IMG/VR virus record: IMGVR_UViG_3300029908_000016
Span: 1 to 64,000 of that record
Origin: a virus
Length of the DNA: 64,000 nt
Strand: one strand, 5' to 3'
The notes beneath the pieces were generated by a model, which was given only the letters and a program-made list of their open reading frames with translations, searched no databases and was not told where the DNA came from. Of the stretch, positions 28,838-64,000 are shown one piece after another (the stretch's first letter is position 1; every line of letters starts with the position of its first letter). Made by a program: the position numbers and the translations under genes.

Positions 28838-28840
28838 ATT

Positions 28841-39791: not shown

Positions 39792-40487
39792 ATGAACGAT
39801 GTTCTGACTCGCCAGGAAAAGATACAACAAATACGTGACTTCTTTAATAAAACAAAAATCGATAAATCAGTTACGCAGCATACGTTGAATAAAGAATATA
39901 GTAATGTTAATCCTGAATTATTAACTACTACTTCTGGTAAATTACTAAGAATTCATAAAAATGAAGTAGATCCCGATGATCGAGATAATCTGCTGTTCTC
40001 AAAGTTTCATGGACTAGAAGATCATCTAGTACAACATGTACAAAAAGATGCCGGAAAGCTTAATGCTAAAGCTAGAATGAAGATGGAGCAGAAGAAAAAT
40101 TTAAGTTGGTTAGACGCTGGGTTTTGGAGTCCTCAACTACGCAGTGTACTGGTATCTAATAGTTTAACCCAACCAATTGACGGTATAAATCCAATAGAAT
40201 TTTTATCGTTGTCGCATAAAGTAACCAAAATGGGAGAAGGTGGGATTTTTTCTTCAGAATCCGTGCCTCAAGAAAGCCATCAAATCAGTGACTCATCCTT
40301 TGGTTGGATCGACCCTATGCAAGTTCCAGAATCTTTAGATATTGGAGTTACAAGTTATTTTACTCAAGGTACAAGAAAAGGTTTTGATAATAAACTTTAT
40401 AAATTAGTGAAAGATAAAAATGGTAATAAAGTTTGGAAGGACCACGAGACTTTATTGAACAGTGTGGTGGATATCCCGGAATACTAA
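39792..40487 (+). CDS. RNA polymerase beta subunit, middle fragment
   Basis: DDRDNL, QPIDGINPIE...HKVTKMGEGG and FGWIDPMQVPES..IG correspond to RpoB DDIDHL, NPL..ITH.RRLSALGPGG and GRICPIETPEG.NIG. Confidence 0.85.
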   Translation: MNDVLTRQEKIQQIRDFFNKTKIDKSVTQHTLNKEYSNVNPELLTTTSGKLLRIHKNEVDPDDRDNLLFSKFHGLEDHLVQHVQKDAGKLNAKARMKMEQKKNLSWLDAGFWSPQLRSVLVSNSLTQPIDGINPIEFLSLSHKVTKMGEGGIFSSESVPQESHQISDSSFGWIDPMQVPESLDIGVTSYFTQGTRKGFDNKLYKLVKDKNGNKVWKDHETLLNSVVDIPEY

Positions 40488-41161
40488 CTCCAATAACTTG
40501 AACTTATAATCGTAGTGTTACCTGTTTTTGTTCCTCCATCAATACCAGTAGTATCATCATACATTGGAGATACTGTTTTACCAAATACTGAACAAGTATA
40601 ACCAGGGCACACAACAGAACCTATATTTGTAACGTTGTTAGCCCCCGTACCTCCAACAGATATAAGCAGTCGAGGATAATATAACCCAGTTCCTAACTTA
40701 TCCCAGTAGGTACCACCCCAAATGATAGCAAGCCCAAAGTTTGCTTCTTCTGCTTCACTGCCTGTAGAATATGCATTATAATTTAAACTAAGTCCATTAC
40801 CTAGTCCAATTAAATTATTATTCGTTCTTATCGCCGGTGACCATGGAGTAGAAGGAATTGATGTAGGTGCTCCAGTTAAAGGCTGATTATATAGCCCTAA
40901 ACTTGGACCGGCGGCACTACCATTAAAATAAATAGTTTCTGTAGGATCAATGTTTGGTATGTAAGTCCATGTCCAAGTGCATTCAATATTTTTGGATAGC
41001 CAATATTCTTTAACAATCTCCTGAGTGGTTAATCCAATATTATAACCATAATTTGCAGGAGGAACTCCTATAATAGGAGTAAAGGGTAAGAATCCTTGAT
41101 TATAATATAATGCTACACTCATTCTATACTGGTTCAGGATAAATAGCCGCGTTACCACCAA
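40484..41161 (-). CDS. putative tail/baseplate protein
   Basis: Gly/Thr/aromatic-rich, coupled to the Cys-rich gene. Confidence 0.5.
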   Translation of the reverse strand: MVVTRLFILNQYRMSVALYYNQGFLPFTPIIGVPPANYGYNIGLTTQEIVKEYWLSKNIECTWTWTYIPNIDPTETIYFNGSAAGPSLGLYNQPLTGAPTSIPSTPWSPAIRTNNNLIGLGNGLSLNYNAYSTGSEAEEANFGLAIIWGGTYWDKLGTGLYYPRLLISVGGTGANNVTNIGSVVCPGYTCSVFGKTVSPMYDDTTGIDGGTKTGNTTIISSSYWS

Positions 41162-42326
41162 TAGCTGTATTTACGATATTCAAATTATTGAAGCAGCTTT
41201 GTAATGATATGGAAGATGTGATTGTTGCAATAGGATATTGTGCGTATGTTTGATTAGGTGGTGTAGAGCCATCAAATTGTGCAATTGTAGGAGACGAGAA
41301 CACAATTCCACTTGGGCCTAGATTATTTGTTGTACATATTTTTGCAGCGGTAGGTGATAATCCCGAAACTGTTAATTCCAACCAAACCAAGTCATTAGAA
41401 TTTATCGAAGAAATCGAAGTGTTTAAACTTGTAATTGATATTGAAGAGGATGTTGGAAATTGCGAAAGATTTCCAGGTAATACGGTTAATGATGCACCAC
41501 TTGGAGACAAAACTACATAGAACGGTGTTTTTGGGCAGTTATTACTAATTTGTCGGGCGTAGTAAGTTATTTCCTCTACTGTGAAATCAATGACTTGTGT
41601 TGTCGAAGCCAAGGGGCAACTACCATCACATGTAGAAGTTGGGCTAGGACTACCAACTACTTCATAGACAAAGTTACATAGACTAATAATATCCCCTTGT
41701 TTAGGGGTTGTACCCAACGTAGAGTACCTACTTTGTATATTTGTGCGAACTTGACAACAAGTAGCAGTACAATCCAGACAAGTAGCTGCCACGTCATTGC
41801 CCCCACCTCCTCCCCCAATATTACCAACCAAAGCAAAATTACAAGGACCACCAACAACGTTTAAACTATTTGGCTGGGTTGGATCATTACTCACACTACT
41901 TGAAAAATTGGTACCCGATGAACAGGGTATGGTAGGTACGTTGATATCGATAATTCCACCAATTACAAAATTACAAGGACCACCCACTACACTGATACTA
42001 CCAGTTGTACTTGCTGAACCACTACCCACAATCGTAATTGCGGATTCAAAAGTAACACCCTGAGGGCAAGGTATGTTGATATTGATCTTCGGTATGTGTA
42101 TTGGAGGAATGGGAAAAACATTATTGAACGTATATTTGCATCCTCCTTGTGGAGTAGTCAGCACACCACTGACATTCAAATCATTAGTGATTAGTGCAGG
42201 GAGATTACATTCAGCAGGCTGGCAGGAAGGATCAGGTGTAATATAAGCAGCCTGATAACCTGTATTACCTGCGTTAAAATCAATACTACTGACATTAACG
42301 CTTAGAGGAGGGTAACAGGTAGCCAT
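41124..42326 (-). CDS. Cys/Pro-rich putative tail-tip protein
   Basis: Repeated VVGGPCNF and many Cys residues. Confidence 0.5.
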   Translation of the reverse strand: MATCYPPLSVNVSSIDFNAGNTGYQAAYITPDPSCQPAECNLPALITNDLNVSGVLTTPQGGCKYTFNNVFPIPPIHIPKININIPCPQGVTFESAITIVGSGSASTTGSISVVGGPCNFVIGGIIDINVPTIPCSSGTNFSSSVSNDPTQPNSLNVVGGPCNFALVGNIGGGGGGNDVAATCLDCTATCCQVRTNIQSRYSTLGTTPKQGDIISLCNFVYEVVGSPSPTSTCDGSCPLASTTQVIDFTVEEITYYARQISNNCPKTPFYVVLSPSGASLTVLPGNLSQFPTSSSISITSLNTSISSINSNDLVWLELTVSGLSPTAAKICTTNNLGPSGIVFSSPTIAQFDGSTPPNQTYAQYPIATITSSISLQSCFNNLNIVNTAIGGNAAIYPEPV

Positions 42327-42703
42327 TAATCGAGTTTATGAATAACTCGATATAAAAACAAGTTCAAAAAAGCCAAAGGAAAAACACTGACCAATGTTGA
42401 TAAATCGATATCTGAATAAGTGTCAAATAATGAATAGACTACAAATATATTAAATACCGCGAACCAGAATGATAGGCATGTAGCACATATTAGTAATCTA
42501 ACAATAAAACAATCATGATACTCAGAAAGATACCCTACATAATTATGAGGGTACCCTTCTTTTTTTAATTTGAAGTACTCGTCTAATCGAAAAAAATACC
42601 GAAAGCCAAATAAACACATATACTCAATAAATGCATTTGTATTCAACCAAACTTCTATTACATAAGCAGAAGATAGTGTATTGATTAGGAGTAATTCAAG
42701 CAT
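42326..42703 (-). CDS. membrane protein with CxxC..FW motif
   Basis: Hydrophobic segments and LICATCLSFW. Confidence 0.55.
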   Translation of the reverse strand: MLELLLINTLSSAYVIEVWLNTNAFIEYMCLFGFRYFFRLDEYFKLKKEGYPHNYVGYLSEYHDCFIVRLLICATCLSFWFAVFNIFVVYSLFDTYSDIDLSTLVSVFPLAFLNLFLYRVIHKLD

Positions 42704-43866
42704 TTTATTAACCGGTTGCAGGTGGAGTATCTGTTACTTTTGAATAACCCAAAAGGTCAGAAATTTTTGCTTTCAACTCTTCAACTAACGCTTTTTGAGC
42801 AGATAGTGCAGAATCATTAATAGTTACTTGATTTAGTTGTTTTTGAACATCGTTAAAGGTTTGTTGAAGCTGTTGCTTATAACCATTGTTCTTGGTTATA
42901 CGTTCATTGACTTGACGAAGAGCGTCGTTCAATACTTCAATAGAGATGTGAGGGGCAGGTTCATTTGAACCTACTACAGGTAGTACAATTGGAGAGGGAT
43001 CAGGCATTTTTCTTTTTAAGTATTAGTGTTTTGGTCTTGTAGGTCTTCGCCATCAGATTTGAGAATGTCTTTAATTTCGTTTTCAATTCTTTTGATTTCA
43101 TCGCGAAAACCAGCTGCGGCATCTTTCTTCTGGCTTTTAATCTGCTGCATTTCTACATAAAGATTGTACACTCGTTCTGCGTTCGTGACAACCGGTGTAG
43201 TAGAATTGGCTGCTGTTGTTTCTGTAGTATTACTCATATTAAATTTTGATATTCTTCTTAAAGTAGATTTCTCGGTTCTTTAACACCAAAACAAAATTTT
43301 CTTTTCCGCTCTCGTCTTTTACTACAATGTTTTGACCATTCTCGTTTCGAAGAAACACTAACGCAATATTGGTGTTACGATTAGCATAAAATACATCTTC
43401 AACAACACGGTTGGTTTCCTTATCGTAAACCGAGTATGCTCGTGAAAGCTTGTCATCCGCCGCTAAAGTAAAGGGTGCGTCATCATCACTATATGATAGC
43501 CTTTGTCCACCTACGATTGTCAGATCCTTAGGTACTTCTTTCAAAGCAGCTTTCGGAGGTTCATCTACATTATTCTCAAATTCTGGACGAGAAGATTTGG
43601 AGATAATAGTATTTTCATCCTTCTTAGCATTTTCAAAAATTTCATCAACCGTATTACTATCCAGAATCGTATTCAGATTCTCTACTGAATTGTTATTCTT
43701 AGAAACTTCTGAATCATTAGTCTTTTGTGTATCTCCGTTAAAAAGCTGAACTAGTCGATCATGTTCTTTTTCAGCTACAGTCTTTTCTTTAAAAGTGTTT
43801 GTTGTTACTGGTGTAACAGGTGTTTGGTTGGTTACTTCGCGGTTTTTCTTGGGTCGTCCCATATGT

Positions 43867-44865
43867 TTAATTTCCTTTGTTTGAGTTAAATCCTTCTTCC
43901 AAATATACGGGTTTTCTTAAAGGTGTCAACAGACTGTTCAATTCTTTTTTTGTTATTGTTAGTAATTTTAAGCTTTTGTCCATCCACCCATAAGACAGTT
44001 TAAATTGCTTTTCTTCATAAACCACTCCACAAGGGAATACTGAAGCATTACCCCATAATACAACTTCTTCCGTATAATCTCCCATAACTAATGGAATACG
44101 AGTTTGGCTTAGAAGTTCAAATTTTTCTGCATTTCTTTTAAAGGTATAACATCCTAGATAATAAACCCTGCCAATACCGTATTCTTCTGTATTACTAAAA
44201 GGATCTGCTTTTGCAGAACTATGAAAAAAATGATAAAAGATACCATCAATTTCGATAGCGGAAGCTCCTCCTCTTATTTCACCAAAAGGCCAATTGAATA
44301 ATCGGCTATCACCTTGTTCTTTAATTAGTATATCATTTTCAAATTCAGCGATAATTGTAACAGGTTGCGTTTTATAAATGAATGTAGGATTTTTTTGATT
44401 ATTTAGAAAGCACCAGTTCTTCTCAAAAGTCATGGGTGTCTGAAAATTAAAAAAATGTTCATTAGCTTTCTTGGTAGCATTCTGACGTTCTTCAATTGTC
44501 CAATTATCTTGATAGTTTAATTTTTTATATCCTTTATAATGCAGGTTTTCTGTTAATTCTACCAGCCCTTGAAATTGGCAGTTTGTTTTCAGATTTATCT
44601 GACTGACGGCTAAATAAGGTTTATCATCTATAATAATAAATCGAGGGTCTTCAAATAGATGATTAAGAATGGGTATTTTTATTTCCCAATTGGCACCTGT
44701 AGGTTGCCAATCTTTATTCATTCTAGTAATGTATAATTTACATTTCCAAGTATCCCAATTAGCCCTATAAGCCATGTAGTTCTCGACCTTATATTTAAAA
44801 ATAGCTCCATTAAATAGGTAAGGAGCATTGACCAGCTTTTCCAAAGGTATATTAGTTATATCCAT
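43867..44865 (-). CDS. beta-propeller glycoside hydrolase-like protein (GH130-like)
   Basis: EDPRF, EKNW, RGG, FFHS, VFPCG and SYG.MD motifs. Confidence 0.7.
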   Translation of the reverse strand: MDITNIPLEKLVNAPYLFNGAIFKYKVENYMAYRANWDTWKCKLYITRMNKDWQPTGANWEIKIPILNHLFEDPRFIIIDDKPYLAVSQINLKTNCQFQGLVELTENLHYKGYKKLNYQDNWTIEERQNATKKANEHFFNFQTPMTFEKNWCFLNNQKNPTFIYKTQPVTIIAEFENDILIKEQGDSRLFNWPFGEIRGGASAIEIDGIFYHFFHSSAKADPFSNTEEYGIGRVYYLGCYTFKRNAEKFELLSQTRIPLVMGDYTEEVVLWGNASVFPCGVVYEEKQFKLSYGWMDKSLKLLTITKKELNSLLTPLRKPVYLEEGFNSNKGN

Positions 44866-44905
44866 GCGAATACAATCTAAATTACACTCAAGGAATATGC
44901 AAATG

Positions 44906-44937
44906 AAAAGACGCCAAATATTAACTTGGCGTCTTTT
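44906..44937. terminator. intrinsic terminator downstream of 44960..45331
   Basis: AAAAGACGCCAA-ATATTAAC-TTGGCGTCTTTT. Confidence 0.8.
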
Positions 44938-44959
44938 TCTAATCGACTAAAATTTTATA

Positions 44960-45331
44960 CTAGTTTGCCTGTACAGTAAAAACTTTACCAGGAATTCCTG
45001 AGAAGTTGGAGTCATATTCGATGACATAATTAAACCCAATTGCCCCGCCAGCTGTAGACTGTGTAATAGATATAGGGGCAGCAGTAGAAATATTGTAATT
45101 TGGATAAACGTCTACTTTTACAGGAGTAGCATCAAGTGTAGCAATAGTTGCTTTAATAATCTTTTTAGATGGTATAGTTCCAAAATAGAAAAAATCTCCA
45201 CGAGTGTATGAACCTGCTGGTACGGTTCCGTATTCGCAGTTATAATTTCCATAACGGGTCCACGATGCTCCATTTACCTGAGTTAATGAATTAGTTACGA
45301 CACCTTTGATTACTAGTCTACTATTAGCCAT
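44960..45331 (-). CDS. putative structural protein
   Basis: SD-like AAAGGA upstream, own terminator, beta-rich composition. Confidence 0.5.
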   Translation of the reverse strand: MANSRLVIKGVVTNSLTQVNGASWTRYGNYNCEYGTVPAGSYTRGDFFYFGTIPSKKIIKATIATLDATPVKVDVYPNYNISTAAPISITQSTAGGAIGFNYVIEYDSNFSGIPGKVFTVQAN

Positions 45332-45457
45332 ATTGTTGTTTCCTTTATAATTTGTTAATTGAATCAGCTATTAAAATTAGACTAACATGAAAATAAAGTG
45401 TACACAATATTTTATTTAGACTATTTGACTTATAATTACCATATAGTATAGTCAATT

Positions 45458-46801: not shown

Positions 46802-46803
46802 GC

Positions 46804-47484: not shown

Positions 47485-47485
47485 A

Positions 47486-50400
47486 TTAATTATTGATTAA
47501 ACTGTCTACGTATTCTTTTACAGCAGGGTGAGATAATAGTTTTTTTGTACGCTCATCTTCTGCTTGAATTGTATTTTCTTGTTTCGTCGCTACGGATACA
47601 GGTTTCTTGTTTAATTGATTATCAATGATCGCACCTGTCACTAATGAAGACAAGTTATGTTTAGCAGTTTTGGACTGCCCAAAATATTGAGGAATGATTG
47701 GTTGTCTTGGAATATAACCATTATTCATCGGGTAGCTTCCCATTGCTCCCTGAGAAGGTTGAGAAGTAGGATTATCGGTTTGGCTGTTCAATAACCCATA
47801 CGCGATGGGTAACATCAAATACGGAGCAGCTTCACCCATCAATCCTTTAACCATATTCTCACCACCTGTTAATGTATTATTAATGGTTGTGGATAAACCG
47901 TTAGGTTGCATCAATGGTTTTACGTTGTTGTAAATATTTTCGGCAGAAGACACACCTGGTATCTGTTTGAGATAATCGTTAAACCCAGAAAGCTTATTCA
48001 TTAAATTGCTTCAATATTAACATTCAATGGACTATTTGAAGAACGATGTTCTTCTTTACCTATATTACTTTTTAAAATAATAGAGGCTAATGTTGTTGCT
48101 AATAATGGTTTATCAACAAAATCTTCTCTTACTTTCTGAGAAGATGGAAAATGCTTGGTTACAGGATGTGCCAAATTCTTTAAGCTTCTACTCAGTGCAC
48201 CATCAGAAATTGTTTCTTCAGCAGATTTCTCAATAGCCTTTAACATACCTATACACATTGCATCAACATGAGGAACATCCATTTCATCCAATGAAGCTTT
48301 CTTTTCTCTGGTTAACGCTTTCAAATAATCTTCATGAGCTTTTTCCAATTCTTTATGAAGATTGTTTTTCTTATAGCTATAATGTTCAGTTTCTTTTTCT
48401 TTGAAGCCTTTATAGATATGACCAATGTTATTCAAATGTTCTGTTAAGGAAGCTTTCTTGGCTTGCTGTAAGCGTTCTTTTGGAAGTTTGATTACAAATT
48501 TTTCTTCCTCTTCTTCTTTACGAGGTTCATTCAATATGTTCTTTAATTGAATACCACCATACAATCCCTTTCCTAACAAATAAGAATGTATACGTTTTTC
48601 TTCAGGTGAAAGGGGTCGTTCGGTCATAAAATTAATCTTCTGGTATTATCAAGGCAGGTTTTTCGGAATCAAGATCTTCAAGATAATGACTAACAATTAC
48701 ATACTTGCTGGTCACATTACTAAAATGGCTTTCCCATTTCGTTACATAATAACGAGGACTATTGATTAGTTCTTCGTAAAGCTTCTTTTCTTCAGGAATC
48801 GTAATATCAAATATTTGGACGTGGTTCTTGAAATTGGAAAATTTTTTCTTTTTTTGTTTGATACCCTTTTCTTCTTCAAAAGCATCAGCAATTTCTTCGT
48901 TTGATCTTCCTCCAAAACCAACCTTCTCAAATATTTCTTTTTCAAAGTCACGGTCATTCCGACGTTTGACTTTCAAATCGGACAGTTCACCAGCGTCATA
49001 AGCATCAACTACAAAAGATTCAGTATTAGGATTCATGTTCTTGATTAATTTTATTTGTTAATTTCTTTAACAAATTAATCTTGTCCTGATAAGTTTTCAA
49101 CTTTTTATTTTTTTCTGATATATCTTTGTCTAGATGTTCATAACCTGTAGCCATCCCATAACCACCCAAAGCAAGTGTACCCGCATACGCGCCTCCTGCC
49201 TTTGCACCAATGTCCAGAGGATTGAGCTTATCAAGGAAAGCGAGCTTCAATAAACTAGCTGCTTTTGTAACACCTGCTTCTGTGTGCATCGCCTGCAAAG
49301 CGTTTTCAAGCTCTTCCAATGAAGAACCTTGTTTTTCGAGATTTTCCGCAAAATTGGCTTTAAGTAGATTTAGAGGGTCCATGATTATTTAATAAACTAT
49401 TACTTATGATAACCCCAGCACCAAAGCCAGCCAAGGATAAAAGAATTTGTGTCTCTTTTTTAAATTGCAGAAATCTTGAAATTGCCAAGGCTGTCAAAGC
49501 ACCAGTTGAGCCTATAAATAAATTTTCTAAGGGATGTGGATTATCAATTATGGATAATATATGATTACGAGCATGATCGTCAACATGAGGATCGAGAGCA
49601 ACCAAAGTCGATAAATGTTGTCGATTGGTTGCTTCATTTAATATCTGTAAAGTATTATTCATATTAAACAGGACTAAAAGAAGCACTCGCTGCAGGTGTT
49701 AAAGCACCTTTTCCACCATAATACAAAGCCATGATTGTTGCTAACGGAATACCATAATCCATCAATTTTGAAACTAACGGATGTTGCACATCAAATGGGT
49801 CATTGTCCTTACGATTTTTATTTAACAGATAACTAGCTCCCATTGCACCCCCTGCAACAACCGGAGCAGGTAGATTTGTAAAATTATTAAAGGTATTTAC
49901 AGCCCCAGAGTATATATTAGCTGTTTTATTGATATCCACTTGTTCAGCTATTAAATCTTTAATCTGCTTATTGATTTTCTTTTTTAAAATGGCTTTCCAA
50001 ACATTCTCATTTTGATGCTTTAAAGTATAAGTAGGATTACGTTTACCTTCGTGCAGCGTAATATACAACTGACCAGGATGACTACGATGTACTTGCGCAG
50101 TACGTTCATGTGTAGCGATATTTGAATAATTATTATCGTTTAATCTTTTGATTTCGAAAGAATGATTGTCTTCTTCTTTGTCGGGTACCAATTTATCAGG
50201 GAATGAAAAACTATAAATTGTCTCTCCATTCTTTAAAGATAGTTTACCATCCTTATGCTTATATTTCCAATTTTGCTGATTATTGGAGAATGGAAAATGG
50301 GATGTTACTTCATGACTGGGTGGAAAGTCGAGGACTTCAGCCAATTTATAAAGTAATATCGCTTTTCCAAAATTCATGATTATTAAGGATAGGAATGTTC

Positions 50401-51693
50401 ACCCGATAAAGCAGCTATTGAATCAGGTGTGATTGTACCTGACTGTGGATAACCTGCTCCATATCCCGGATTTAACATTCCTCCAAAATTACCTTCGTTA
50501 TTTTTAATATTTGATAACAATGAAGGAAGATACTTATCACCACCATAAGCCCCTAATAATGTGGTAGCTAATCCAGGTAAACCAGATAGACCATAATGTT
50601 TCGCTAACAACATCGCTCCCAATCCACCTGCCAATGTTCCTGTCCAACCATTGTCCAATCCAGGAATTAAATCATTTTGTTTTGATATAGGATCTGCAGG
50701 ATTAGTATTCGTACCACTGATGTTATCTTTAATCCCCTGTTCCACCCCACCGGTAATACCTGAATAATCCAATAACTTTTTACCCCCATATAATGCACCT
50801 GCCCCAATAGCTCCTGCTGTACCAAGTTGTCGAGCACCGTATCGAGCTAATAAAGCTGCTGGAGCAGCAGCGGCTGTACCAATTGGTCCAAACATTGCAC
50901 CAGTTCCAAGTATTGAAGCAGGTGCCATATTACGTTCAATGAATCCTCGATTACCTTCTCGGTTCGTACCGTTCCATAACAAATCAGTTAATGAGTTATC
51001 TAACGGAGCTTTACCAATTAGTTTATTAAATAATGTTGGATCGGATGGTTGTGGAGTGGACTCTGGTGTTGATGTATTTACAGGATTGGATTTTCCTTTA
51101 TTGGAATAAGCTTCTTCTGCTGCATTTCGAGCATCAATACCTACAGGTGCTTGTAATCCTGGTTCTTTGTTTTGTGGGGCATAAGAGGTATTATCAATAT
51201 CTGTGGATGCTGCGTTAGATTGTGCCCTTGCTCTTGCTCGGTCATAAGTTGGATTTACCGATGTAGGTTGTTTCACAACCTTTGCTGGGTTTACGATTGG
51301 GTCAGGGCGTAAATATTTTCCAAATGATCGTTCAATTTGTGTCATTCTTGGCAATGCTTGTTCAATCGCAGGTAAAGCTGCATCACCCAATTCTCCAAGA
51401 CCTGCTGCGTTTTTAAATAACTTTTCTGCTGTATCGAATACACCTTGAATATATTCTTTTGAATAGCCGGATTGTATAGCAGCTATCTTAAATTGTTTCT
51501 GAAAATGCATTGAAGCTTTTTTTAGCTCTTCAATTGGATTTTCAATTTCTCCAATCTCATAAGATATCTTTGTAAACAATGCATTATCAGATAGTTGGCT
51601 ATCAATATACTCTTCTGCCTTTTTTTGAATGGAGGATAGAGAATGTAATAAAGGATAAATAAAGGGAGGAAGAGTTTCCATATACTTAATCAA
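47486..51693 (-). other. operon of seven putative internal virion proteins (47486..48001, 48001..48627, 48632..49036, 49026..49382, 49360..49686, 49664..50377, 50383..51693)
   Basis: Tightly coupled ORFs, several with glycine-zipper segments and recurring K-x-(A/S/G) motifs; co-oriented with beta-N. Confidence 0.6.
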
Positions 51694-51736: not shown

Positions 51737-51772
51737 CCCCCTCCCAGAATATTCATTATAAATTGGTATAAT
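51737..51772 (+). promoter_or_regulatory. island-start promoter motif, copy 4
   Basis: CCCCCTCCC ... TTGGTATAAT, TATAAT at 51767-51772. Confidence 0.85.
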
Positions 51773-53273: not shown

Positions 53274-53309
53274 CCCCCCTTGGAGGATTAGGCTACAAAT
53301 TGGTATACT
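53274..53309 (+). promoter_or_regulatory. island-start promoter motif, copy 5
   Basis: CCCCCCT ... TTGGTATACT, TATACT at 53304-53309. Confidence 0.8.
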
Positions 53310-53341
53310 AGTATATCAGGAAAGGATTTATCTCTTGTGAG

Positions 53342-54065: not shown

Positions 54066-54069
54066 TGGC

Positions 54070-55054: not shown

Positions 55055-55838
55055 ACGAAGTCGAGCAATATAATGGGGAAACGGCTGTTAAGCAAGATAG
55101 AGGTATAGAAAGAGTAAGAATAGCTATTCGACAGAGAGGTAAGCTGGAACTATTCGATTAACCAAGTAAACGGCAGGCCTGCGAAAAGTAGAGAATGGAA
55201 AATAAAGTTTAGCTTAGAAAGAGCTATAAAATAGGGGCTGAGACTAATCATTGGCCAACTAATCTAGTACTACATATATAAGGTATATAATATTCTATAA
55301 AGACAGGTATACCGAATTGCTTGAAAAACATTCGTTAGATATAGTTTTATTGAGTTTATTTAATGTAAATAAGGCAGTTGACAACATATGTATTCAGATT
55401 TACGTTAATGTAAAAACACTAATTCAGTGGATGGTTAATACAAGTTAAGTATATACATAAAATTTGACTGTGGTGCCTTTATACGTATATTCAACAATGC
55501 ATAAATCTTATATCGTACTTCCAGATATCGTAGAATTGACTAGGGATAATTTAGCAGAGTTTTATAAAACATTTGTCAAAGTTACACGTATCCCATTATT
55601 TAAATCGTCAATAACAGATCACCTAATAACTGTACAATTTTCGGATAAACATATTTTGGATATGTTGAGCTTTTGTCCTATTGAGGACATTTCAAAAGTA
55701 GACCCACTTAGGCAAGAATTTCAAAAATGTAATCCTACAGTATTTGGTGTACCTGTTTCTGTGGAGGGTAATTATACAGCTATTATTTTCCAATATGGCA
55801 TTTGACAGCTATAAATATAAGGTTAGATTGTAGAACTT

Positions 55839-56903
55839 ATGAAATTTGCTTTTAAAGAACAGCGGTCGATTGTTGAAAAGTCTATAGAACGAGTATTCGC
55901 ATTATTGTCAAACAATCCTTATAGTAAACCTACACTTTATCTATCTGGCCCAATGTCTGGTAAGCCTGACCATAACTTTCCAGAGTTTAATCGGTTGGCT
56001 AAACATTTCCGTGAGCAAGGGTTTTTCGTATTAAACCCAGCCGAGAATTTTGATGGTGTAACCAATCTTCCTTACGAAACACATTTTCTGGAAGATGTTG
56101 TATTGTTATTGTTTGCTACTCACATTTATATGCTGGATGGTTGGGAGACATCAAGAGGAGCTTATTGTGAATATCTGTTATCTCGTAGATTAAATCATAT
56201 ATTTGTTGATGTTAATGGATTACGCATTGACCCACCACCAGCTAGGGAAACCGCAAAGGATATTGCTACAACAGGATTTATTAATGTTTTAGAACCAAGT
56301 ACCGACAAGTTGACTAAGGATATAGCTGATGCAGTCAATAAACGTTTACGGGAATACGCCTTTCAAGAAAAGAAAAATGAACATGTTGAGAATACAATAA
56401 CAACAGCTAATAAACAGTTTTTTAAGAATTGTAGTATTGAAGATTATGAAGTTTTCAATGCTAGGTTAAATAATCGGGTCAAAGAGTTATTGGTTGAAAA
56501 CGAAAAGCTAAAAAAGGAAAGAGATGAATTTAAGAAGGCATTAGATGTAGCATTATTGGAAAATGTAGGTAATGCTTTATTGGAGATATCTGCTGTTTCT
56601 AAAGAGGAAGAGAAATCATTAGCTCAACAATCAATAGATATTGTTAATAAAGCTCGCTCTGCTCAATATGGTAATCCTAAAGATGATTTCTTAAGAACGG
56701 TAGGAATGTTAAATTCATTAGGTTATCGTTTTGAGACACCTACAGGAGAGATTAAGAACTTAGATTGTTATGATTTTCCAATAATTATGAACGTTGTAAA
56801 ATTATCTAGATTGGTTCATACCATTAATAAAGAAACATTTCATAAGGATTCGGTATTAGATATTCATGGTTATATGAATACATTAGAAATGTTGTATAAG
56901 TAG
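55839..56903 (-). other. placeholder check: no minus-strand gene called here
   Basis: See the + strand CDS at the same coordinates; the ORF track lists no minus-strand ORF in this interval. Confidence 0.05.
55839..56903 (+). CDS. DUF4406 (nucleoside deoxyribosyltransferase-like) + coiled coil + DUF6378-like fusion
   Basis: YLSGPMSG.P.HNFPEF...LNPAE...LDGWETSRGA..E; R.AQYGNP.DDF...KLSR...DS.LDI.GY; upstream TTGACA-17-TAGATT. Confidence 0.8.
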   Translation: MKFAFKEQRSIVEKSIERVFALLSNNPYSKPTLYLSGPMSGKPDHNFPEFNRLAKHFREQGFFVLNPAENFDGVTNLPYETHFLEDVVLLLFATHIYMLDGWETSRGAYCEYLLSRRLNHIFVDVNGLRIDPPPARETAKDIATTGFINVLEPSTDKLTKDIADAVNKRLREYAFQEKKNEHVENTITTANKQFFKNCSIEDYEVFNARLNNRVKELLVENEKLKKERDEFKKALDVALLENVGNALLEISAVSKEEEKSLAQQSIDIVNKARSAQYGNPKDDFLRTVGMLNSLGYRFETPTGEIKNLDCYDFPIIMNVVKLSRLVHTINKETFHKDSVLDIHGYMNTLEMLYK

Positions 56904-56943
56904 TAAATAACCTTGATTTCTACCCTTATGGTTAAGTTATAAT

Positions 56944-57252
56944 TTGAGCATGGCCAAATTGGACTTAACCAAGCTAAAGAAAATCAAGTCACATACTTTT
57001 GCAGGTAAAAAGTATAAGGTAAAAGTCAAATACCTTCCACCTGACCGGATGGCTCAATGTGATCATCCGGAAACAAAAGAAAAAGCCATTATTATCGATC
57101 CCCGACATCACGAAGAAAGGGATTTACTAAAATCCCTTTTGGATGAATCTCTACATTGTTTTGATTTTCGAATTGAAAATGATGTTGTCGATAAATTTGC
57201 TTTGGATATAGCAAATTTTTTAATTAGAGCAGGATTTGGATTAAAGAATTAA
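56944..57252 (+). CDS. small zincin-like hypothetical protein
   Basis: CD.P....I.ID...LLDESLH (degenerate HExxH). Confidence 0.45.
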   Translation: MSMAKLDLTKLKKIKSHTFAGKKYKVKVKYLPPDRMAQCDHPETKEKAIIIDPRHHEERDLLKSLLDESLHCFDFRIENDVVDKFALDIANFLIRAGFGLKN

Positions 57253-57504
57253 GCTTCTTCAAAAAACCGATTAACAGATTCAAGTTTTGAGTTTTCCAGA
57301 GATTCAAGCATTTCCATAATCTTATAATCTTCGGTATTGGATTTTTTACAAAGTTCAACAAACGATTGAATGAGTTCTTCGTCAGCAAATTTATAAAGAC
57401 TACCGTTTGCTTTTTTCGTTAAATCCATAAATGAATGATAACATTGTTTTTTGTAAACACAACACAGACTTGTGGACATTGCTAAAATACGCTAACTTTA
57501 AATA

Positions 57505-60471
57505 ATGTCCGATACTCATAAAGTTGTTCTCGATCATGGCAAGTTGGCAAAATCTCCAATTGATAAAAAATCCGATTATAGTTTTTTATCCCCTTCTTCG
57601 TTTTTCTCACCAACTACCAATTTGATTCCTCAGTTGTCAGGTATATCCGGTGGTCGTGTATTATTGGGGGACAAAGCTAGCCTACAGGCAATATCGTTAG
57701 TGCACCGTGAAGCCCCTTTAGTCAAATCACGTAATGAAGAAACTGACGAATCATTTGTAAAAGAATATGCCAAACCAATGGCAGCTGTTTTTTCGAAAGT
57801 TAAGGGAAAGGTAAACAGTATAAAAGATAACATAATTATGGTTGGTGACACTCCACACCATATTTACGACAATTTCCTGACGGGACATAAAAGCTTCATT
57901 CATCATGAGCCGATTGTAAAAGTTGGAGATGAGGTTAAAGAAGGTGATTTATTAGCCAAAAGTAACTTTACAGATTCCCACGGTAATTTGGCGTTGGGAG
58001 TCAATTTAACAACTGCTGTCATGCCTTATCGTTCTTCGAATTACGAAGATGCGTATGTTATTACCGAGGCAGGTGCTAAGAAACTGGCAGGTGAGCAAAT
58101 GATTCCCCTGACGGTTGAAAAGGAAAGAGGGCTGGATTTCAATAAGAATAAATATATTTCGTTGTTCCCCAATAAATACGTCAATTCTCAACTTGAAAAT
58201 GTTGATTCTGATGGTGTGATTAAAAAGGGTACAACGGTAAAGAACGGTGACCCGTTGCTTTTGAGCTTCGAACCCAGAACATTGAGAACGACCGATGCGC
58301 AGCTTGGTAATATTTCAGGTATATTAAAGAACGCATTTTCTGATCGTTCACAAAAATGGGAATATGATTCTCCGGGTGAAGTAATGGATGTGGCAAAGAC
58401 TAATAAATTGGTCACGATTACTATAAAAACGAGAAGACCGATATCAGTGGCAGACAAGCTATCCGTAAGTGCTGGTGCAAAAGGTGTGGTTGGCGCGATA
58501 CTATCGGATAGTCAATCCCCAGTAACGAAAGATGGAAAACCAGTAGATATTATCTTGAATTCCATGTCCGTTGTTTCGCGGGTAGCTCCAGGGTTGTTAA
58601 CATCGATAGCTTTAGGTAAAGTTGCTCAAAAAACTGGTAGAGCACTATCTATTAATGGCTTTGATGAAAAGTCGAATATTGATAATGCACAAAAGATATT
58701 AAAAGAAAACGGCTTGCATGAAATGGAGGATATTTATGATCCACTATCAAACAAGCATTTGAACGTAATGGTGGGACCAATGTACGTTACTCGCCTACAT
58801 CATATATCGGAAGATAAAGCCTCAAGTAGAGGGCAGGGAGGCAGTTACGATATCAATATGCAACCTGCAAAAGTATCAGGAGGTGATAAGAGTAAACGAC
58901 TAGGTAATCTAGGTACGAATATTTTAATATCTAGAAACATGCGTCATGTTCTCGAAGACGCAGGAACAATACGGGGAACAAAAAATGATGAATATTGGCG
59001 TAAATTGAAATTAGGTGAAGATTTACCAAATCCAGAAGTTCCATTTATTTTCAATAAATTTATTTCTCATCTTGAAGGAGCAGGTATAAAAGTACAACGG
59101 GATGGTACTCGGTTTAATGTACTACCTCAAACAAATAAGGATGTTGAAAATTTATCAAAAGCAGAGATTGAAAATGCTAATATATATAAATTAAAAGCTG
59201 GTGAATTGATACCTGAGGAGGGAGGTTTATTTGATGTTAATAAAGTAGGTATTGGAGGAGATAACTATACACATATTAATTTGAAGTACCCGGTTATTAA
59301 TCCAATTACTGAGGATTATATTCGTAAGACCTTAAATATCACAAAAGATAAATTTAATGATCTGGTAGGCAAAGGACAATTGATCGATTTATTAAAGTCA
59401 ATCAACTTAGATAGTAAAATCAAAGAATTAGAAAAAGATATTAAATCGGCTAGAAAATCAGACAGGGATAATAAACTAAAGGTCTTGGCTTTTCTTAAAA
59501 ATCTAAAGAACAATAACATTGATCTTAAAGATTTGATCATCAATAAAATACCGGTAATACCTGCAAAATTTCGTCCACTGGTTGTACAAGGAGGAAGAGT
59601 AATATCATCTGGTGTTAATGAGTTATACAGAGATTTAATGTTAGTGAATCAAAGCACTGACGGATTGCCAGAAGATATAGCTGAAGGAGTCAGGCGCAAA
59701 CAATACGATGGAGTAAAAGCTGTTTATGGATTAGGTAGCCCAATTTCTACAAGAAATGAAAAAAAGAATTTTAAAGGATTATTGGCATCTGCTTTAGGCT
59801 TACAAGGAGGCTCAGCTAAAGGTAGTATGTTCCAATCAAAGGTTGTCAATAAACCTTTGGATCTAACTGGTAGGGCAGTCTTAACTACGGATTCAAATTT
59901 GGATATTGATGAAGTATCTTTACCTCATGAAGCTGTTTGGAAAAGTTATAGCCCTTTTGTAATTCGTCGATTAGTACAATCAGGGTTACCCGCTGTACAT
60001 GCAAAAGAATATGTTGAAAATAAACATCCTATTGCAAGGGAGCATTTATTGGATGAATTAAAGGATCGACCGATTAATGTTATTCGTGATCCTCAAATTG
60101 CCTTACATTCAAGTCAGGGGTTTTTTGTTAAGATGAATTCCGATCCAAAAGATACGTCGATTAAGTTGAATCCCCTTCTTAGTAAAGGATTCGCATACGA
60201 TCTTGATGGAGATGCGTTAACATACTTCGTACCTTCTAGTGAGAAAGCCAAGGATGAAATTAAGAACAAAATGCTACCATCCAAAAATCTACTTTTTCCT
60301 AGAAATTTTGGGCCTGCCTATATACCTTCCAATGAATCCGCTTTAGGTTTATATCAGGCTTCTACACTGAATAATAAGAATAATCCCAGAAAATTTAATA
60401 ACGTAGACGAAGTGAGGAAGGCTTATGAAAAAGGAGAGTTGCATCTAGGCGATAATGTATTATTGTCTTAG
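57505..60471 (+). CDS. RNA polymerase beta C-terminal / beta' N-terminal fusion with catalytic site
   Basis: beta: NLIP, LALGVN, NYEDA, DKL..GAKGVV, PVDIILN, RLHH..DK; beta': GGLFD, IPVIP..FRP, KPLDLTGRAV, AYDLDGD at 60193-60213. Confidence 0.93.
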   Translation: MSDTHKVVLDHGKLAKSPIDKKSDYSFLSPSSFFSPTTNLIPQLSGISGGRVLLGDKASLQAISLVHREAPLVKSRNEETDESFVKEYAKPMAAVFSKVKGKVNSIKDNIIMVGDTPHHIYDNFLTGHKSFIHHEPIVKVGDEVKEGDLLAKSNFTDSHGNLALGVNLTTAVMPYRSSNYEDAYVITEAGAKKLAGEQMIPLTVEKERGLDFNKNKYISLFPNKYVNSQLENVDSDGVIKKGTTVKNGDPLLLSFEPRTLRTTDAQLGNISGILKNAFSDRSQKWEYDSPGEVMDVAKTNKLVTITIKTRRPISVADKLSVSAGAKGVVGAILSDSQSPVTKDGKPVDIILNSMSVVSRVAPGLLTSIALGKVAQKTGRALSINGFDEKSNIDNAQKILKENGLHEMEDIYDPLSNKHLNVMVGPMYVTRLHHISEDKASSRGQGGSYDINMQPAKVSGGDKSKRLGNLGTNILISRNMRHVLEDAGTIRGTKNDEYWRKLKLGEDLPNPEVPFIFNKFISHLEGAGIKVQRDGTRFNVLPQTNKDVENLSKAEIENANIYKLKAGELIPEEGGLFDVNKVGIGGDNYTHINLKYPVINPITEDYIRKTLNITKDKFNDLVGKGQLIDLLKSINLDSKIKELEKDIKSARKSDRDNKLKVLAFLKNLKNNNIDLKDLIINKIPVIPAKFRPLVVQGGRVISSGVNELYRDLMLVNQSTDGLPEDIAEGVRRKQYDGVKAVYGLGSPISTRNEKKNFKGLLASALGLQGGSAKGSMFQSKVVNKPLDLTGRAVLTTDSNLDIDEVSLPHEAVWKSYSPFVIRRLVQSGLPAVHAKEYVENKHPIAREHLLDELKDRPINVIRDPQIALHSSQGFFVKMNSDPKDTSIKLNPLLSKGFAYDLDGDALTYFVPSSEKAKDEIKNKMLPSKNLLFPRNFGPAYIPSNESALGLYQASTLNNKNNPRKFNNVDEVRKAYEKGELHLGDNVLLS

Positions 60472-62113
60472 TTATATGATTAGAAACGATTTAACAAAAG
60501 AAAAATATGGTTATGTTTTTTCTGATCTAGGTAAATATTCAAGAAATTTTTTAATTTTCCAATGCGACTCTTGTGGGGAAATTATCGAAAAAATTCGAAA
60601 AAATTTTAGAAAGTGGTTTACACTTGAAGATAAGGCTTTCTGTACTAAATGTATGGCAGCGGCCAGAGAGTATGGAATAGCTAAAAAATATACTTCTTAC
60701 GAAGAATACTTAAATACAAGACATCAAAATTTAAAAAAGAATAATTTAGCTAAATATGGAGTAGAAAATGTTTCCCAGTTATCGGAAATTAAGGAAAAAA
60801 AGGTAAATACTTTTTTAAAAAATTATAATCATACCTCCTATATACAATCCGAAGAAGGCAAAAAACATAGAGAAGCAAGACTTTTGGAAGTTTACGGGGT
60901 TAAAAATTGCTCTCAAAGTGATGTGATAAAAGACAAAAAAGAAAAAACTTTTCTAAATAGATACAACGTTAAAAATATTTTTCAAGATGAGGCGATCAAA
61001 CAAAATATACAAAAATATTTTTTAGATAATTATAATGTCGTAAATCCTAGTCAAATACCTGAAGTACAGAATAAAAAAGAAATATCCTGTTTAAAGAGTA
61101 CGGGTTATAAACATAATTTCATAAATCCTGTTATAAGAGAAAAGTCTAGAAAAGGTTGTCTGGCTACAGGTCGTTGGAAATTTCCTGAAGAAGGTTATGT
61201 TAAGAAAATTGCCGAGGAAAAAGGTATAAGTACTGAGACTTTTTATAGTTTTGTCAGAAGATTCGGTGTCGAGCAATTCGAGGAAAGTTTTCGACTGCGA
61301 ATGACAAAAATCGAATTTGTCGTTAAGCAATTTTTAGAGAGTCTCAAGATGCCTTATATATTTAATAAGAGAATAACTACAGATTGCAACCCTAACAAAA
61401 ATAAGAAATTTAGTAGACCTGATTTTATCGTACCTAGTAACAGGGTAATTATAGAATGTGATGGTTTATTTTGGCATTGTGATAAATTTAGAGATAAAGA
61501 TTATCATGTTGATCGCAGAAAATATTTTGTTGATAATAATTATTTTCCGTTATTCTTTAGAGAACATGAAATTTTACATCATCAAAAAATTGTCGAATCC
61601 ATCATTAAAAATAGATTAAATTTAATTACAAATAGAATATTTGCCCGAAAGACTACTTTAAAGGTAGTTGAATTCGAAGAAGCAAAATTGTTTTTTACAA
61701 ATAATCATTTGATGGGTAAGGGGTTGGGTGAAACATTGGGCCTTTATTCTAACGACCGCCTAGTGTTAGCCATGCAATATAGATGGAAAAATAAACAAGA
61801 TAGGTTGCTAGAGATATCGAGGCTTTGCCCTCTGATAGACCATTCGATTATAGGCGGATATTCCAAATTATTAAAATTTCTGATAAAGTTAGAACACCCC
61901 AAACAAGTTGTTAATTTTATAGATAAAAGATATGGTGATGGTAATTACTTATCGCAATTCGGGTTTGTAAAGGAGTCAGAGTTCATCAGTTTTCAATGGA
62001 CTGATTTTATACATACTTTTCATCGTATGAAGTATCCTTCTAATTCCGGTTATGATAACGGGTTGTATAAGATTTGGGATTGTGGTCAAGCCAAATATGT
62101 ACTAACGTTGTAA
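60455..62113 (+). CDS. Hef-like free-standing homing endonuclease
   Basis: Zn finger, KYGV/YNV repeats, RPDF...IECDGLFWH, IFARKT...IWDCGQ motifs. Confidence 0.8.
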   Translation: MYYCLSYMIRNDLTKEKYGYVFSDLGKYSRNFLIFQCDSCGEIIEKIRKNFRKWFTLEDKAFCTKCMAAAREYGIAKKYTSYEEYLNTRHQNLKKNNLAKYGVENVSQLSEIKEKKVNTFLKNYNHTSYIQSEEGKKHREARLLEVYGVKNCSQSDVIKDKKEKTFLNRYNVKNIFQDEAIKQNIQKYFLDNYNVVNPSQIPEVQNKKEISCLKSTGYKHNFINPVIREKSRKGCLATGRWKFPEEGYVKKIAEEKGISTETFYSFVRRFGVEQFEESFRLRMTKIEFVVKQFLESLKMPYIFNKRITTDCNPNKNKKFSRPDFIVPSNRVIIECDGLFWHCDKFRDKDYHVDRRKYFVDNNYFPLFFREHEILHHQKIVESIIKNRLNLITNRIFARKTTLKVVEFEEAKLFFTNNHLMGKGLGETLGLYSNDRLVLAMQYRWKNKQDRLLEISRLCPLIDHSIIGGYSKLLKFLIKLEHPKQVVNFIDKRYGDGNYLSQFGFVKESEFISFQWTDFIHTFHRMKYPSNSGYDNGLYKIWDCGQAKYVLTL

Positions 62114-62368
62114 GAGATATGCTTTATTCAGAATGGAACGAAAAGACGATTGAGGAGCGCACGACGCTTCTTCGTTCTTGGTTACATGAACTGATTGAGT
62201 TGAATAAAAATATCGCTAATCCCATATCTGAATATTATACTAAACATAGGCGTCGAACTGTTTTGCGAAAGAATATTCGCGAGGTTTCCAGCTATATGAG
62301 ATTGAATTACAGACCCGAAGAAATTATTTACGAAGAAGAGCAAGAAGACAATTCACGAAAAAAAGAAT

Positions 62369-63061
62369 ATGCAAAAAATATCCCAAATTTTAGATGAGAT
62401 CGATAACCTAAAAAAGGTTGCGTTCATTCCTAATCCCCAGATATCAAATCCTCAAGCAAACCCTGAATTAGGACAAGCTTATCAACAAGTTGAACAGATG
62501 GCGCAAGGATTGCCTCCTCAAGCGCAACAGCAATTGCAGCAACAGTTACAACAGCTTCAACAATTACCACCTGACCAACAGCAGCAGGCTTTACAGCAAT
62601 TAGCTCAACAAGTGCAGCAAGCGACTGCCCAATCGCAAGGTGGGAGTCAGGGAGCACCAGGTCAAGGTCAATCACAAGCTGGCGATCCAAGTACTCCACC
62701 TCAAGAAAGTGGGCAACCTAGTTCTGGTGGAGGTAATGATCCTGGAGCTTCTAATCTTTCTTCTTTAGATAGCCAGCAAATTACTTTGACTTTATCTGAT
62801 TTGTTAAACCTGGTTTCAGGCGGAAAACATTCGAAAACGACCGCCGCCATTCATGGTTCTAAACGTGATGCGGAATTACAATCTCAAATGCTTGAATTAA
62901 AGCATAAAGAGAAGGTGGAAGATTATAATAAGAAACAGCAAGAAAAAGAATTACAGGAACAGCAGCAACAAGCCATGGCTCAACAACAGGCTTCCGCTGG
63001 TAATGTTGGAGGAGGCGGAATTTATCCTGGTGGTATGAACGGTCAAACACCTCAGCCATGA
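62369..63061 (+). CDS. Gln-rich putative virion/internal protein
   Basis: Poly-Q composition. Confidence 0.55.
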   Translation: MQKISQILDEIDNLKKVAFIPNPQISNPQANPELGQAYQQVEQMAQGLPPQAQQQLQQQLQQLQQLPPDQQQQALQQLAQQVQQATAQSQGGSQGAPGQGQSQAGDPSTPPQESGQPSSGGGNDPGASNLSSLDSQQITLTLSDLLNLVSGGKHSKTTAAIHGSKRDAELQSQMLELKHKEKVEDYNKKQQEKELQEQQQQAMAQQQASAGNVGGGGIYPGGMNGQTPQP

Positions 63062-63867
63062 CAATAATGAATCTCGATCCTCTATCTACATTCCTTGAGA
63101 AAGAAGGGAGTGATAAAGCTTTGGCTTTGAAAGAGGATATAGATAACTTACCCATTAAAGTCTACCACGGTTCTCCTAAGCCTCATTTAAAAGAATTGTA
63201 TAAAGGTAGTTATGTAACAACAGATCCTTCCATTGCTCATAAGATGGGAAGGTTCTACAAATCAACAGGTAAAACTTGGAAAGATGATGATTTAGCAGAA
63301 CGTTATGGTTTTACACCAGACATTAAGTTTAAAGAAGGAAGAGAACCTGACGGTGAACCTACTGTATATGAGGGAGAAATTCATAAAAAAGATATTGATT
63401 TTTTAAACAATCCACACGAGCATAAGACTCTAATTCCTATCCCTATTAAAATATATAAGATGAATAAGACTTCTTCTGCTCATTTTGCCGATGTGAAATT
63501 TTCCAGTTTACCTTCCAAGACTCAGGAAGATATTAAAAGATTTGCTAGTGATATTACCGACGATACATTATTGATTCATGCAGGTTATGTGATTAAAGAA
63601 TTACTCCCGATGGTAGATAAACATAACTTCGATCAAGCTGAGAAACATATTAAGGATACTAAGATTGATGAGAAAGAATTTTATAAATTACTTCCTTCTA
63701 AGTATATTTTGATTAAAGATAATAAGATAATTGATGGCCACCATTACGTGGCAAAGGCTCGTAAACTTGGCGTTACATGTTCCTTAAATGTACTGGATTT
63801 AACACCTATACGTTTTCAGAAAAAAGCTGCGAATCTATGGGAAGTATTAAAGAATAGGATTTCTTAA
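63058..63867 (+). CDS. ADP-ribosyltransferase-like + ParB-like fusion
   Basis: VYHGS...YVTTD..IA N-terminal half; IIDGHH C-terminal half. Confidence 0.5.
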   Translation: MTIMNLDPLSTFLEKEGSDKALALKEDIDNLPIKVYHGSPKPHLKELYKGSYVTTDPSIAHKMGRFYKSTGKTWKDDDLAERYGFTPDIKFKEGREPDGEPTVYEGEIHKKDIDFLNNPHEHKTLIPIPIKIYKMNKTSSAHFADVKFSSLPSKTQEDIKRFASDITDDTLLIHAGYVIKELLPMVDKHNFDQAEKHIKDTKIDEKEFYKLLPSKYILIKDNKIIDGHHYVAKARKLGVTCSLNVLDLTPIRFQKKAANLWEVLKNRIS

Positions 63868-64000
63868 TGGAAACTACCGTAGGTCACATACTTTTAAAAA
63901 ATTTGTTACCTAAAGACTTACAGCATTATGCGAGTAAAACATTAGATAAGAAAAACATCGAAGCACTGTTCAAGGATATTACTGTTCATCATCCTGAACA
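63867..64000 (+). CDS. RNA polymerase beta' C-terminal fragment (3'-truncated)
   Basis: Translated manually: METTVGHILLKNLLP...TLDKKNIEALF, matching RpoC ETTVGR.L....LP...LDKK, the segment that follows the end of the 57505 fusion. Confidence 0.75.
   Translation, partial: METTVGHILLKNLLPKDLQHYASKTLDKKNIEALFKDITVHHPE

Follow-up and report, generated by a model that had tools for sequence, protein, structure and literature searches.

Four scattered genes in a stretch of phage DNA appear to encode the chains of one functional RNA polymerase of the bacterial, two-barrel type, probably the only polymerase that the phage possesses. The stretch, hereafter the window, comprises the first 64 kb (64,000 nucleotides) of an 81,005-bp viral contig, IMG/VR record IMGVR_UViG_3300029908_000016, which is ~40% complete by CheckV. 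PHROG and Pfam matches identify the contig as a large tailed phage carrying genes for PhoH, ribonucleotide reductase, a ThyX-like thymidylate synthase, dCTP deaminase, a tail protein and a head-protease-like protein; the guanine-cytosine (GC) content of the window is ~33–37%. In this phage beta is cut into three pieces, the last of which is fused to the N-terminal half of beta', and the remainder of beta' forms a fourth chain. By homology with the cultured phage Arash, the enzyme would be a late product packaged in the virion. Judging from gene sequence, we give this reading as a whole a probability of about 0.6. A comparison of related records indicates that the four-gene layout is standard in a large, barely studied clade of uncultured phages rather than peculiar to the window.

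The four pieces tile one beta and one beta'

Firstly, we located each piece on the Salmonella subunits RpoB and RpoC and on the Arash proteins gp206 and gp216. The four open reading frames (ORFs) proposed by a sequence-only reading of the window are all present at the coordinates given for them (Table 1), with the three that bear beta scattered over 20 kb on both strands; the beta'-C ORF, whose ATG overlaps the stop codon of the ORF before it, continues beyond the end of the window. Beta-N has no match in Pfam. A profile built from an 11-sequence family nevertheless aligned it with RpoB 27–227 (hhalign, probability 75%, E 2.6e-5), and it matches residues 36–199 of Arash gp206 (BLASTP, E 1e-9) and RpoB 63–156. 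Beta-mid contains Pfam Rpb2_3 at residues 129–192 (E 1.3e-4, 22.4 bits for a cut-off of 21), aligns with RpoB 419–592 (hhalign, probability 92%) and matches Arash gp206 249–469 (BLASTP, E 2.7e-20). The fusion chain contains Rpb2_6 at 128–456 (E 8.3e-51), Rpb1_1 at 637–717 and Rpb1_2 at 856–922, which confirms that both catalytic barrels lie on one 988-residue ORF. Its residues 1 to ~531 correspond to RpoB ~628–1338 (651–1338 where the cuts are placed), with the beta double-psi barrel, and residues 613–987 to RpoC 172–550, with the beta' barrel and the Asp triad (hhalign probability 99.8%); between the two parts, ~80 junction residues replace RpoC 1–171. Finally, beta'-C contains Rpb1_5 (E 5.4e-21) and Rpb1_4, corresponds to RpoC 571–939 and 1152–1320, and matches Arash gp216 7–601 (BLASTP, E 5.5e-71). 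These matches agree with the claim that the pieces are collinear with RpoB and RpoC, share no stretch and are parts of a single enzyme.

Table 1. Features of the window that are discussed in the text (aa, amino acids).
Feature	Length	Position	Strand	Remarks
beta-N	226 aa	46804..47484	-	N-terminal protrusion and start of lobe; last gene of a minus-strand operon
beta-mid	231 aa	39792..40487	+	Remaining lobe/protrusion and fork domain
beta-C/beta'-N fusion	988 aa	57505..60471	+	Both double-psi barrels
beta'-C	617 aa	63867 to 65720 of the contig (63867..64000 in the window)	+	Second zinc site
Homing-endonuclease gene, free-standing	552 aa	60455..62113	+	phrog_3339 (E 4.8e-51), Pfam DUF7487
Second homing-endonuclease gene, same family	447 aa	45458..46801	+	phrog_3339 (E 2e-99), DUF7487 and Mom-like
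Seven ORFs upstream of beta-N, same operon		47486..51693	-	No family match
SNF2-family helicase	820 aa	34485..36947	+	Pfam SNF2-rel_dom, Helicase_C; possible accessory factor
Conserved ORF	102 aa	56944..57252	+	Directly upstream of fusion; same position in 13/22 related loci; no family match

Secondly, we placed the beta-bearing pieces on homologues in which beta is unsplit. They occupy residues 36–199, 249–469 and 495–1516 of Arash gp206 (1525 aa) and residues 5–215, 223–431 and 460–1454 of the metagenomic protein P0128 (1455 aa), with which a second one, P0129 (1458 aa), agrees. Their summed length (226 + 231 + 988 = 1445 aa) compares with 1455–1527 aa in the unsplit homologues, implying that no part is missing and none is present twice. 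The same lengths bear out the statement that the pieces contain no intein, free-standing homing-endonuclease genes instead flanking two of them. Split inteins at the ends of the pieces were also considered and rejected, since the unsplit homologues are tiled with few residues to spare and no space is left for intein halves.

The three cuts can be placed on the bacterial subunits. The first falls within the lobe region of beta (RpoB 228–418), at the site of a lineage-specific insert in enterobacteria. The second lies between RpoB 593 and 650; the archaeal B''/B' split may sit near it. The third cuts beta' right after its barrel, at RpoC 551–570. Two metagenomic proteins are arranged otherwise: in P0127, beta-N and beta-mid are joined around an insert of ~800 aa with an acetyltransferase domain, located exactly at the breakpoint, and P0126 is apparently a complete beta without any link to beta'.

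Catalytic residues and zinc sites

Thirdly, we compared the core motifs, by column-level residue mapping on Salmonella RpoB and RpoC, with those of 120 homologues of the fusion chain (the best 120 of 486 database matches). A897-Y-D-L-D-G-D903 of the fusion aligns with RpoC N458-A-D-F-D-G-D464, and S322-A-G-A-K-G327 with RpoB R1069-H-G-N-K-G1074. The residues expected to carry catalysis are kept: D899, D901 and D903 (RpoC D460, D462 and D464) are found in 120, 120 and 118 of the homologues, and the beta lysines K318 and K326 (RpoB K1065 and K1073) in all of them, as are the glycines G902, G324 and G327. The neighbouring positions are free. At the position of N458 the homologues have G (58), N (45), A (12), T (4) or S (1), at that of A459 they have A (68), L (27), G (21), F (2), M (1) or Y (1, the window itself), and the R-H pair never occurs as R-H. 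The two readings AYDLDGD and SAGAKG, which the sequence-only reading had singled out as altered core motifs, are therefore real; they are not a peculiarity of the window, since the relaxation is family-wide. As far as these alignments tell, the alteration is a family trait that affects non-catalytic positions, and Y898 alone is special to the window.

The fusion chain has no cysteine among its 988 residues. The zinc finger formed in RpoC by C70, C72, C85 and C88 hence has no counterpart, in agreement with the earlier observation that the N-terminal zinc-finger cysteines of beta' are absent. In contrast, the second zinc site is retained, C226, C283, C295 and C298 of beta'-C corresponding to RpoC C814, C888, C895 and C898.

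The layout is shared by a clade of uncultured phages

All of the 120 best matches pair Rpb2_6 with an Rpb1 N-terminal domain, and 109 of them are 935–1008 aa long, the other 11 being 1296–1689 aa; they come from contigs of up to 293 kb. A single-protein locus search of IMG/VR retrieved no relative, whereas an alignment-based search found 18 records that hold the fusion gene. Beta-N is a separate ORF in 15 of these and beta-mid in 14, always as intact ORFs of ~217–232 aa with conserved ends, even though these relatives are only ~40–50% identical. In the records without one of the pieces, the contig ends near the fusion gene (G006, G009 and G012) or near beta-N (G015). The relative orientation is conserved as well: beta-N and beta-mid are on opposite strands in all 14 records that hold both, and beta-mid is on the strand of the fusion gene, as in the window, in each of the four records checked by coordinates (G002, G005, G007 and G010). 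The break pattern, which the sequence-only reading had thought might define a distinct enzyme, is not peculiar to the window. The three-way split of beta would be a derived trait, fixed in the clade, and not recent damage by homing endonucleases.

Literature searches, and the portions of text covered in PMC10585845, PMC7824862, PMC7481178, PMC7598289 and PMC13282480, gave no description of this fusion-and-split layout.

Comparison with known polymerases

The nearest cultured counterparts are gp206 and gp216 of Arash (OQ632216.1; PMC10585845) and VPHD69_0261 and VPHD69_0264 of Vibrio phage D69 (OZ195729.1), with near-identical matches in Vibrio phages D148 and D181. As in the window, an in-frame fusion joins the end of beta to the N-terminal half of beta', and beta'-C is a separate gene of ~606–617 aa. 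The fusion of the window is 31% identical to that of Arash over residues 37–948 and 30% identical to that of D69. The fusion chains of Arash (1525 aa) and of D69 (1527 aa), however, hold the whole of beta, giving two genes, whereas in the window beta is cut twice more, giving four; the window form is thus a further-split variant. The fusion as such already exists in these cultured phages, where it has gone unremarked: the Arash paper labels gp206 'subunit beta', and no word with the stem 'fus' appears in the part of its text covered here (PMC10585845).

The polymerases of phiKZ and AR9, as described in the portions of PMC7598289 and PMC7824862 at hand, resemble that of the window in being phage-encoded and made of several polypeptides, with beta' cut after the barrel and neither alpha nor omega, and they include a form carried in the virion. 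They differ in that there are two paralogous sets, with beta and beta' on separate chains; they are also highly divergent, and no sigma factor can be recognised in them. The clade of the window has a single set with fused barrels and strong bacterial similarity, so that the expected difference from the phiKZ/AR9 enzymes holds, the breakpoints being compared by description only (PMC7598289, PMC7824862). Being much nearer to the bacterial polymerase than those of phiKZ or AR9, the enzyme should be easier to interpret. The 60 PDB matches listed for the fusion and the 60 listed for beta'-C all bear the names of cellular subunits (beta, beta' or cyanobacterial gamma), and none that of a phage enzyme.

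The cut in beta', which follows the barrel, falls in the inter-domain region where cyanobacteria have their gamma/beta' split and where a review also puts the cut of phiKZ-type enzymes (PMC7598289). Residues 621–981 of the fusion match gamma 187–551 of 624, and residues 21–343 of beta'-C match cyanobacterial beta' 10–352 (chains of 8syi); by transitive mapping, which gives an estimate rather than a direct alignment, the window cut (RpoC ~551–570) lies ~10–30 residues earlier. Unlike in the window, cyanobacterial beta is whole and unfused. Helicobacteraceae and Wolbachia have a natural rpoB-rpoC fusion joining the beta C-terminus to the beta' N-terminus (PMC7483510, with reference to Zakharova 1999 and Lane & Darst 2010). 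It unites full-length beta with full-length beta' in cells that have alpha and omega, whereas the window chain extends from the middle of beta to the middle of beta' and is without the N-terminal zinc finger of the latter. The mReC phages are tailed, with a polymerase near the cellular enzymes, like the window phage. Their survey, in the part of PMC7481178 seen, required beta and beta' matches of at least 800 aa each and an NADxDGD motif; with A-Y-D-L-D-G-D and a beta' in parts of ~390 and 617 aa, the window enzyme lies outside both filters, which would have excluded its clade. Lastly, YonO and crAss-like polymerases also have both barrels on one chain, but accessory modules are largely absent from them and they show no detectable COG0085/COG0086 similarity (PMC7824862, PMC7481178, as far as these were covered); in the window the full set of beta and beta' modules, spread over four genes, is present and matches Pfam and PDB strongly.

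Phage multisubunit polymerases serve as natural experiments on the minimal cellular enzyme and on the ways in which its modules may be cut. In this clade the barrels are tethered on one chain with neither alpha nor omega, a possible stepping stone from multi-chain to single-chain two-barrel polymerases, and closely related unsplit, fused and thrice-split versions would make it possible to test directly what each cut does. Cultured entry points are Arash and the Vibrio phages, and the family is very large in metagenomes.

Proposed assembly of the chains, and missing subunits

We propose that the four chains (beta-N; beta-mid; the joined beta barrel, beta end and N-half of beta'; and beta'-C with Rpb1_5 and the second zinc site) would assemble non-covalently into a beta/beta'-like core that keeps the Asp triad and both beta lysines. 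Prediction of a complex between beta-N and beta-mid gave a score of 0.81, while the best of three controls scored 0.00; of solved complexes, 116 of 157 reach this mark, as do 2 of 215 mismatched pairs. Agreement between the model runs extended to at least 99% of contacts, and the partner had a pLDDT (predicted local distance difference test) of at least 81. The prediction, made for these two chains only, supports, without demonstrating it, the binding of beta-N to beta-mid; since the split halves resemble solved bacterial beta, that resemblance may itself account for the high score.

Alpha (PF01000) and omega (PF01192) were found in none of the five near-complete relatives (genomes that are 93–100% complete), compared with all of 14 control genomes. 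The covalent tether between beta and beta' might replace the alpha dimer as assembly platform, and omega with it, since the clade encodes neither. Sigma70_r2 is present in two of the five near-complete relatives, where it lies in ORFs of 192 and 213 aa; one match exceeds the Pfam cut-off. Sigma factors are annotated in Arash, and by homology a small sigma-like factor would confer promoter specificity on the window enzyme.

Possible packaging in the virion, and promoter-like sites

By homology with Arash, the enzyme would be made late, packaged in the virion, injected and used to transcribe the early genes. In the part of the Arash paper available (PMC10585845), gp206 heads the virion proteins by number of spectra (3516, with 100% coverage), and gp216 (1210 spectra), the helicase gp217 (1148) and the sigma factor gp10 (467) are also found. 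By analogy, the polymerase of the window is plausibly packaged too. Neighbouring genes are partly shared. Homologues of Arash gp218 and gp222 lie downstream of beta'-C in the contig, and residues 360–820 of the SNF2-family helicase are 41% identical to gp217, which Arash encodes directly after beta'-C. Three of the ORFs upstream of beta-N (48001..48627, 49360..49686 and 49664..50377) are kept beside it in 11–13 of the 22 related loci over which the conservation of neighbouring genes was scored.

The chief alternative is a functional enzyme that is not carried in the virion: the host polymerase, possibly redirected by a sigma factor, would read the early genes, and the phage enzyme would serve the middle and late genes only. 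We regard this as possible, if rather unlikely. The exact sequence TTGGTATA(A/C)T occurs six times in the window, always on the plus strand, where 0.77 sites would be expected, and none of 100 shuffles reached six. They belong to a bipartite promoter-like motif made of a C-rich box (CCCCTCTG-like), 16–18 nt and then TTGGTATAAT, the form of an extended -10 box. On the plus strand, complete motifs are found at 5792–5824, 17855–17890, 20428–20463, 51737–51772 and 53274–53309, and one site, at 8079–8088, has no C-rich box. The host polymerase could read such extended -10 sites, in which case a virion enzyme would be unnecessary. In the relatives, the motif has two loose matches, at one place in two loci, across 428 kb around the polymerase genes; these stretches are mostly late-gene regions, so the comparison is not a fair test. 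A purely intracellular role is opposed by the top spectra and complete coverage of gp206 in purified Arash particles, by the sigma-like factor in the same particles (PMC10585845, in part) and by the polymerase genes themselves, which in both the contig and Arash adjoin genes with Arash homologues annotated as structural.

Several points weigh against a functional, virion-packaged polymerase as we read it. The phage and its clade are known from gene sequence alone, and Arash, the sole basis for packaging, is only ~30% identical. The Arash authors themselves point out that proteins abundant during infection may co-purify with particles, which leaves room for a carry-over of polymerase (PMC10585845, in the part covered). 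The ORFs co-transcribed with beta-N, which the sequence-only reading had seen as a virion-cargo operon hinting at packaging, have no match in Pfam, PHROG or Arash, nor to any known virion protein, a result that neither supports nor refutes that hint. The SNF2-family helicase shared with Arash is absent from all five near-complete relatives, and the idea that it is a universal partner of the polymerase was rejected on this count. Five of the extended -10 sites, those with a C-rich box, precede small plus-strand genes of unassigned function. In the 81 kb of the contig, no gene for sigma (including homologues of the two sigma ORFs of the relatives, L027 and L028) and no Pfam match for alpha or omega was found; with only ~40% of the genome present, this is weak evidence. 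For the fusion chain, AlphaFold2 gave a poor model (mean pLDDT 60.7, predicted template modelling score 0.37), although the junction, residues 520–690, is predicted to be ordered within it (block pLDDT ~60–90). Lastly, Y898, which adjoins the first catalytic Asp, is unique to the window among the 120 homologues.

Beyond the packaged polymerase, a more far-reaching proposal, which we find doubtful, is that the enzyme has been re-partitioned into a self-sufficient, sigma-guided and virion-delivered sole polymerase of a large phage clade, with the tether in the role of the alpha dimer and omega and with the relaxed residues as an adaptation to the DNA and promoters of the phage. The relaxation at N458 and at the R-H pair and the loss of the zinc finger would then mark adaptation to DNA that is possibly modified, and to a promoter class of its own with the C-rich box, the 16–18 nt spacer and TTGGTATAAT.

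A probable single set of polymerase genes

A very improbable explanation is that the pieces belong to two paralogous polymerases, one of the virion and one not, as in phiKZ, the remaining pieces lying in the missing 60% of the genome. The contig is indeed only ~40% complete, and phiKZ-like phages carry two sets, according to the sections of PMC7598289 covered. The window pieces, however, tile single-chain homologues from end to end and do not overlap, and each of the five near-complete relatives has exactly one Rpb2_6 ORF and one Rpb1_5 ORF, which points to one enzyme rather than a phiKZ-style pair, though a very divergent second set could escape Pfam.

Homing endonucleases and inserts near the polymerase genes

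Two free-standing homing-endonuclease genes of the same family abut two of the pieces. The first overlaps the final 17 nt of the fusion gene and sits between it and beta'-C. It is a mobile insertion and not part of the enzyme: a homologue exists in only three of the 18 relatives, in the same place in G010, and the gap between fusion and beta'-C measures 3.4 kb in the window and 3.0 kb in G010, against 1.2–1.6 kb in three relatives without the endonuclease. Contigs of other sequencing runs show no joint that skips this gene, the stretches they leave uncovered being uninformative. The second converges on the 3' end of beta-N and is matched in only one of the 22 related loci. Homing endonucleases as the cause of the splits were rejected, since the splits are clade-wide and the endonuclease genes sporadic; the endonucleases are hence later arrivals.

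The same evidence makes it hard to believe that the four genes are decaying remnants of a polymerase gene broken by homing-endonuclease and intein traffic, from which no enzyme is made. Such traffic does exist, as shown by the two abutting endonuclease genes and by relatives whose polymerase genes hold large intein-like inserts at no fewer than four sites, and Y898 is unusual. Against decay stand the invariant catalytic residues, the rarity of the endonuclease genes (three of the 18 relatives) and the recurrence of the same breakpoints with intact ORFs in 14–15 of the 18 relatives at only ~40–50% identity.

The inserts themselves are 292–441 aa long, with shorter ones of 63 and 74 aa, and occur in fusion and beta-mid homologues, where they follow reference positions 319, 448/450, 461 and 899; sites 319 and 899 fall inside the lysine motif and the Asp triad. 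The carriers are P0007, P0052, P0056, P0067, P0072, P0098, P0100, P0116, P0118, P0119, P0120, P0124 and P0125, and several inserts have LAGLIDADG or intein-splicing Pfam domains. The fusion/beta-mid gene family is heavily used by inteins. A third endonuclease-like ORF lies at 71949–73025 (+) of the contig, within the conserved block downstream of beta'-C; it has an HTH_38 domain, a weak DUF559 match above the Pfam cut-off and an MTES_1575 match below it, and is absent from all 22 related loci.

Integrity of the assembly

We also compared the window with contigs of other runs. Runs labelled as peat metagenome contain contigs near-identical to the window DNA, and most pieces are at least 99% alike in contigs of four peat runs, none of which is flagged as the likely source. 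The beta/beta' junction is bridged by contig X6 (59043–59323) and the fusion/endonuclease junction by contig X10 (60296–60645), each from another run and with 0 differences. An assembly chimera as the source of the fusion or of the scatter can be practically dismissed: the layout comes from a single metagenomic contig and depth in the other runs is low (~2–8), but the critical junctions are bridged without a difference and the 109 matches of 935–1008 aa are single chains with the same fused domains from many independent assemblies.

Other features of the contig

The large subunit of ribonucleotide reductase (1138 aa, 30172–33588, minus strand) has a LAGLIDADG domain at residues 480–533, within its barrel domain; this insert is probably an intein. 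An ORF of 1537 aa at 11707–16320 (+), rich in Thr, Gly, Ser, Ala and Asn, has no family match. It comes after a tail-protein-like gene, its GC content is ~0.50 in surroundings of ~0.33, and it may be a fibre or receptor-binding protein. Genes of nucleotide metabolism are clustered at 22985–29458, 39003–39500 and 55839–56903. They encode NADAR, a radical-SAM protein, GMP-reductase-like protein, dATP/dGTP pyrophosphohydrolase and DUF3310 kinase-like, ThyX-like, dCTP deaminase and deoxyribosyltransferase-like proteins. Together with the Mom-like domain of one endonuclease, these genes hint at modified DNA, which would suit a phage that carries its own polymerase.

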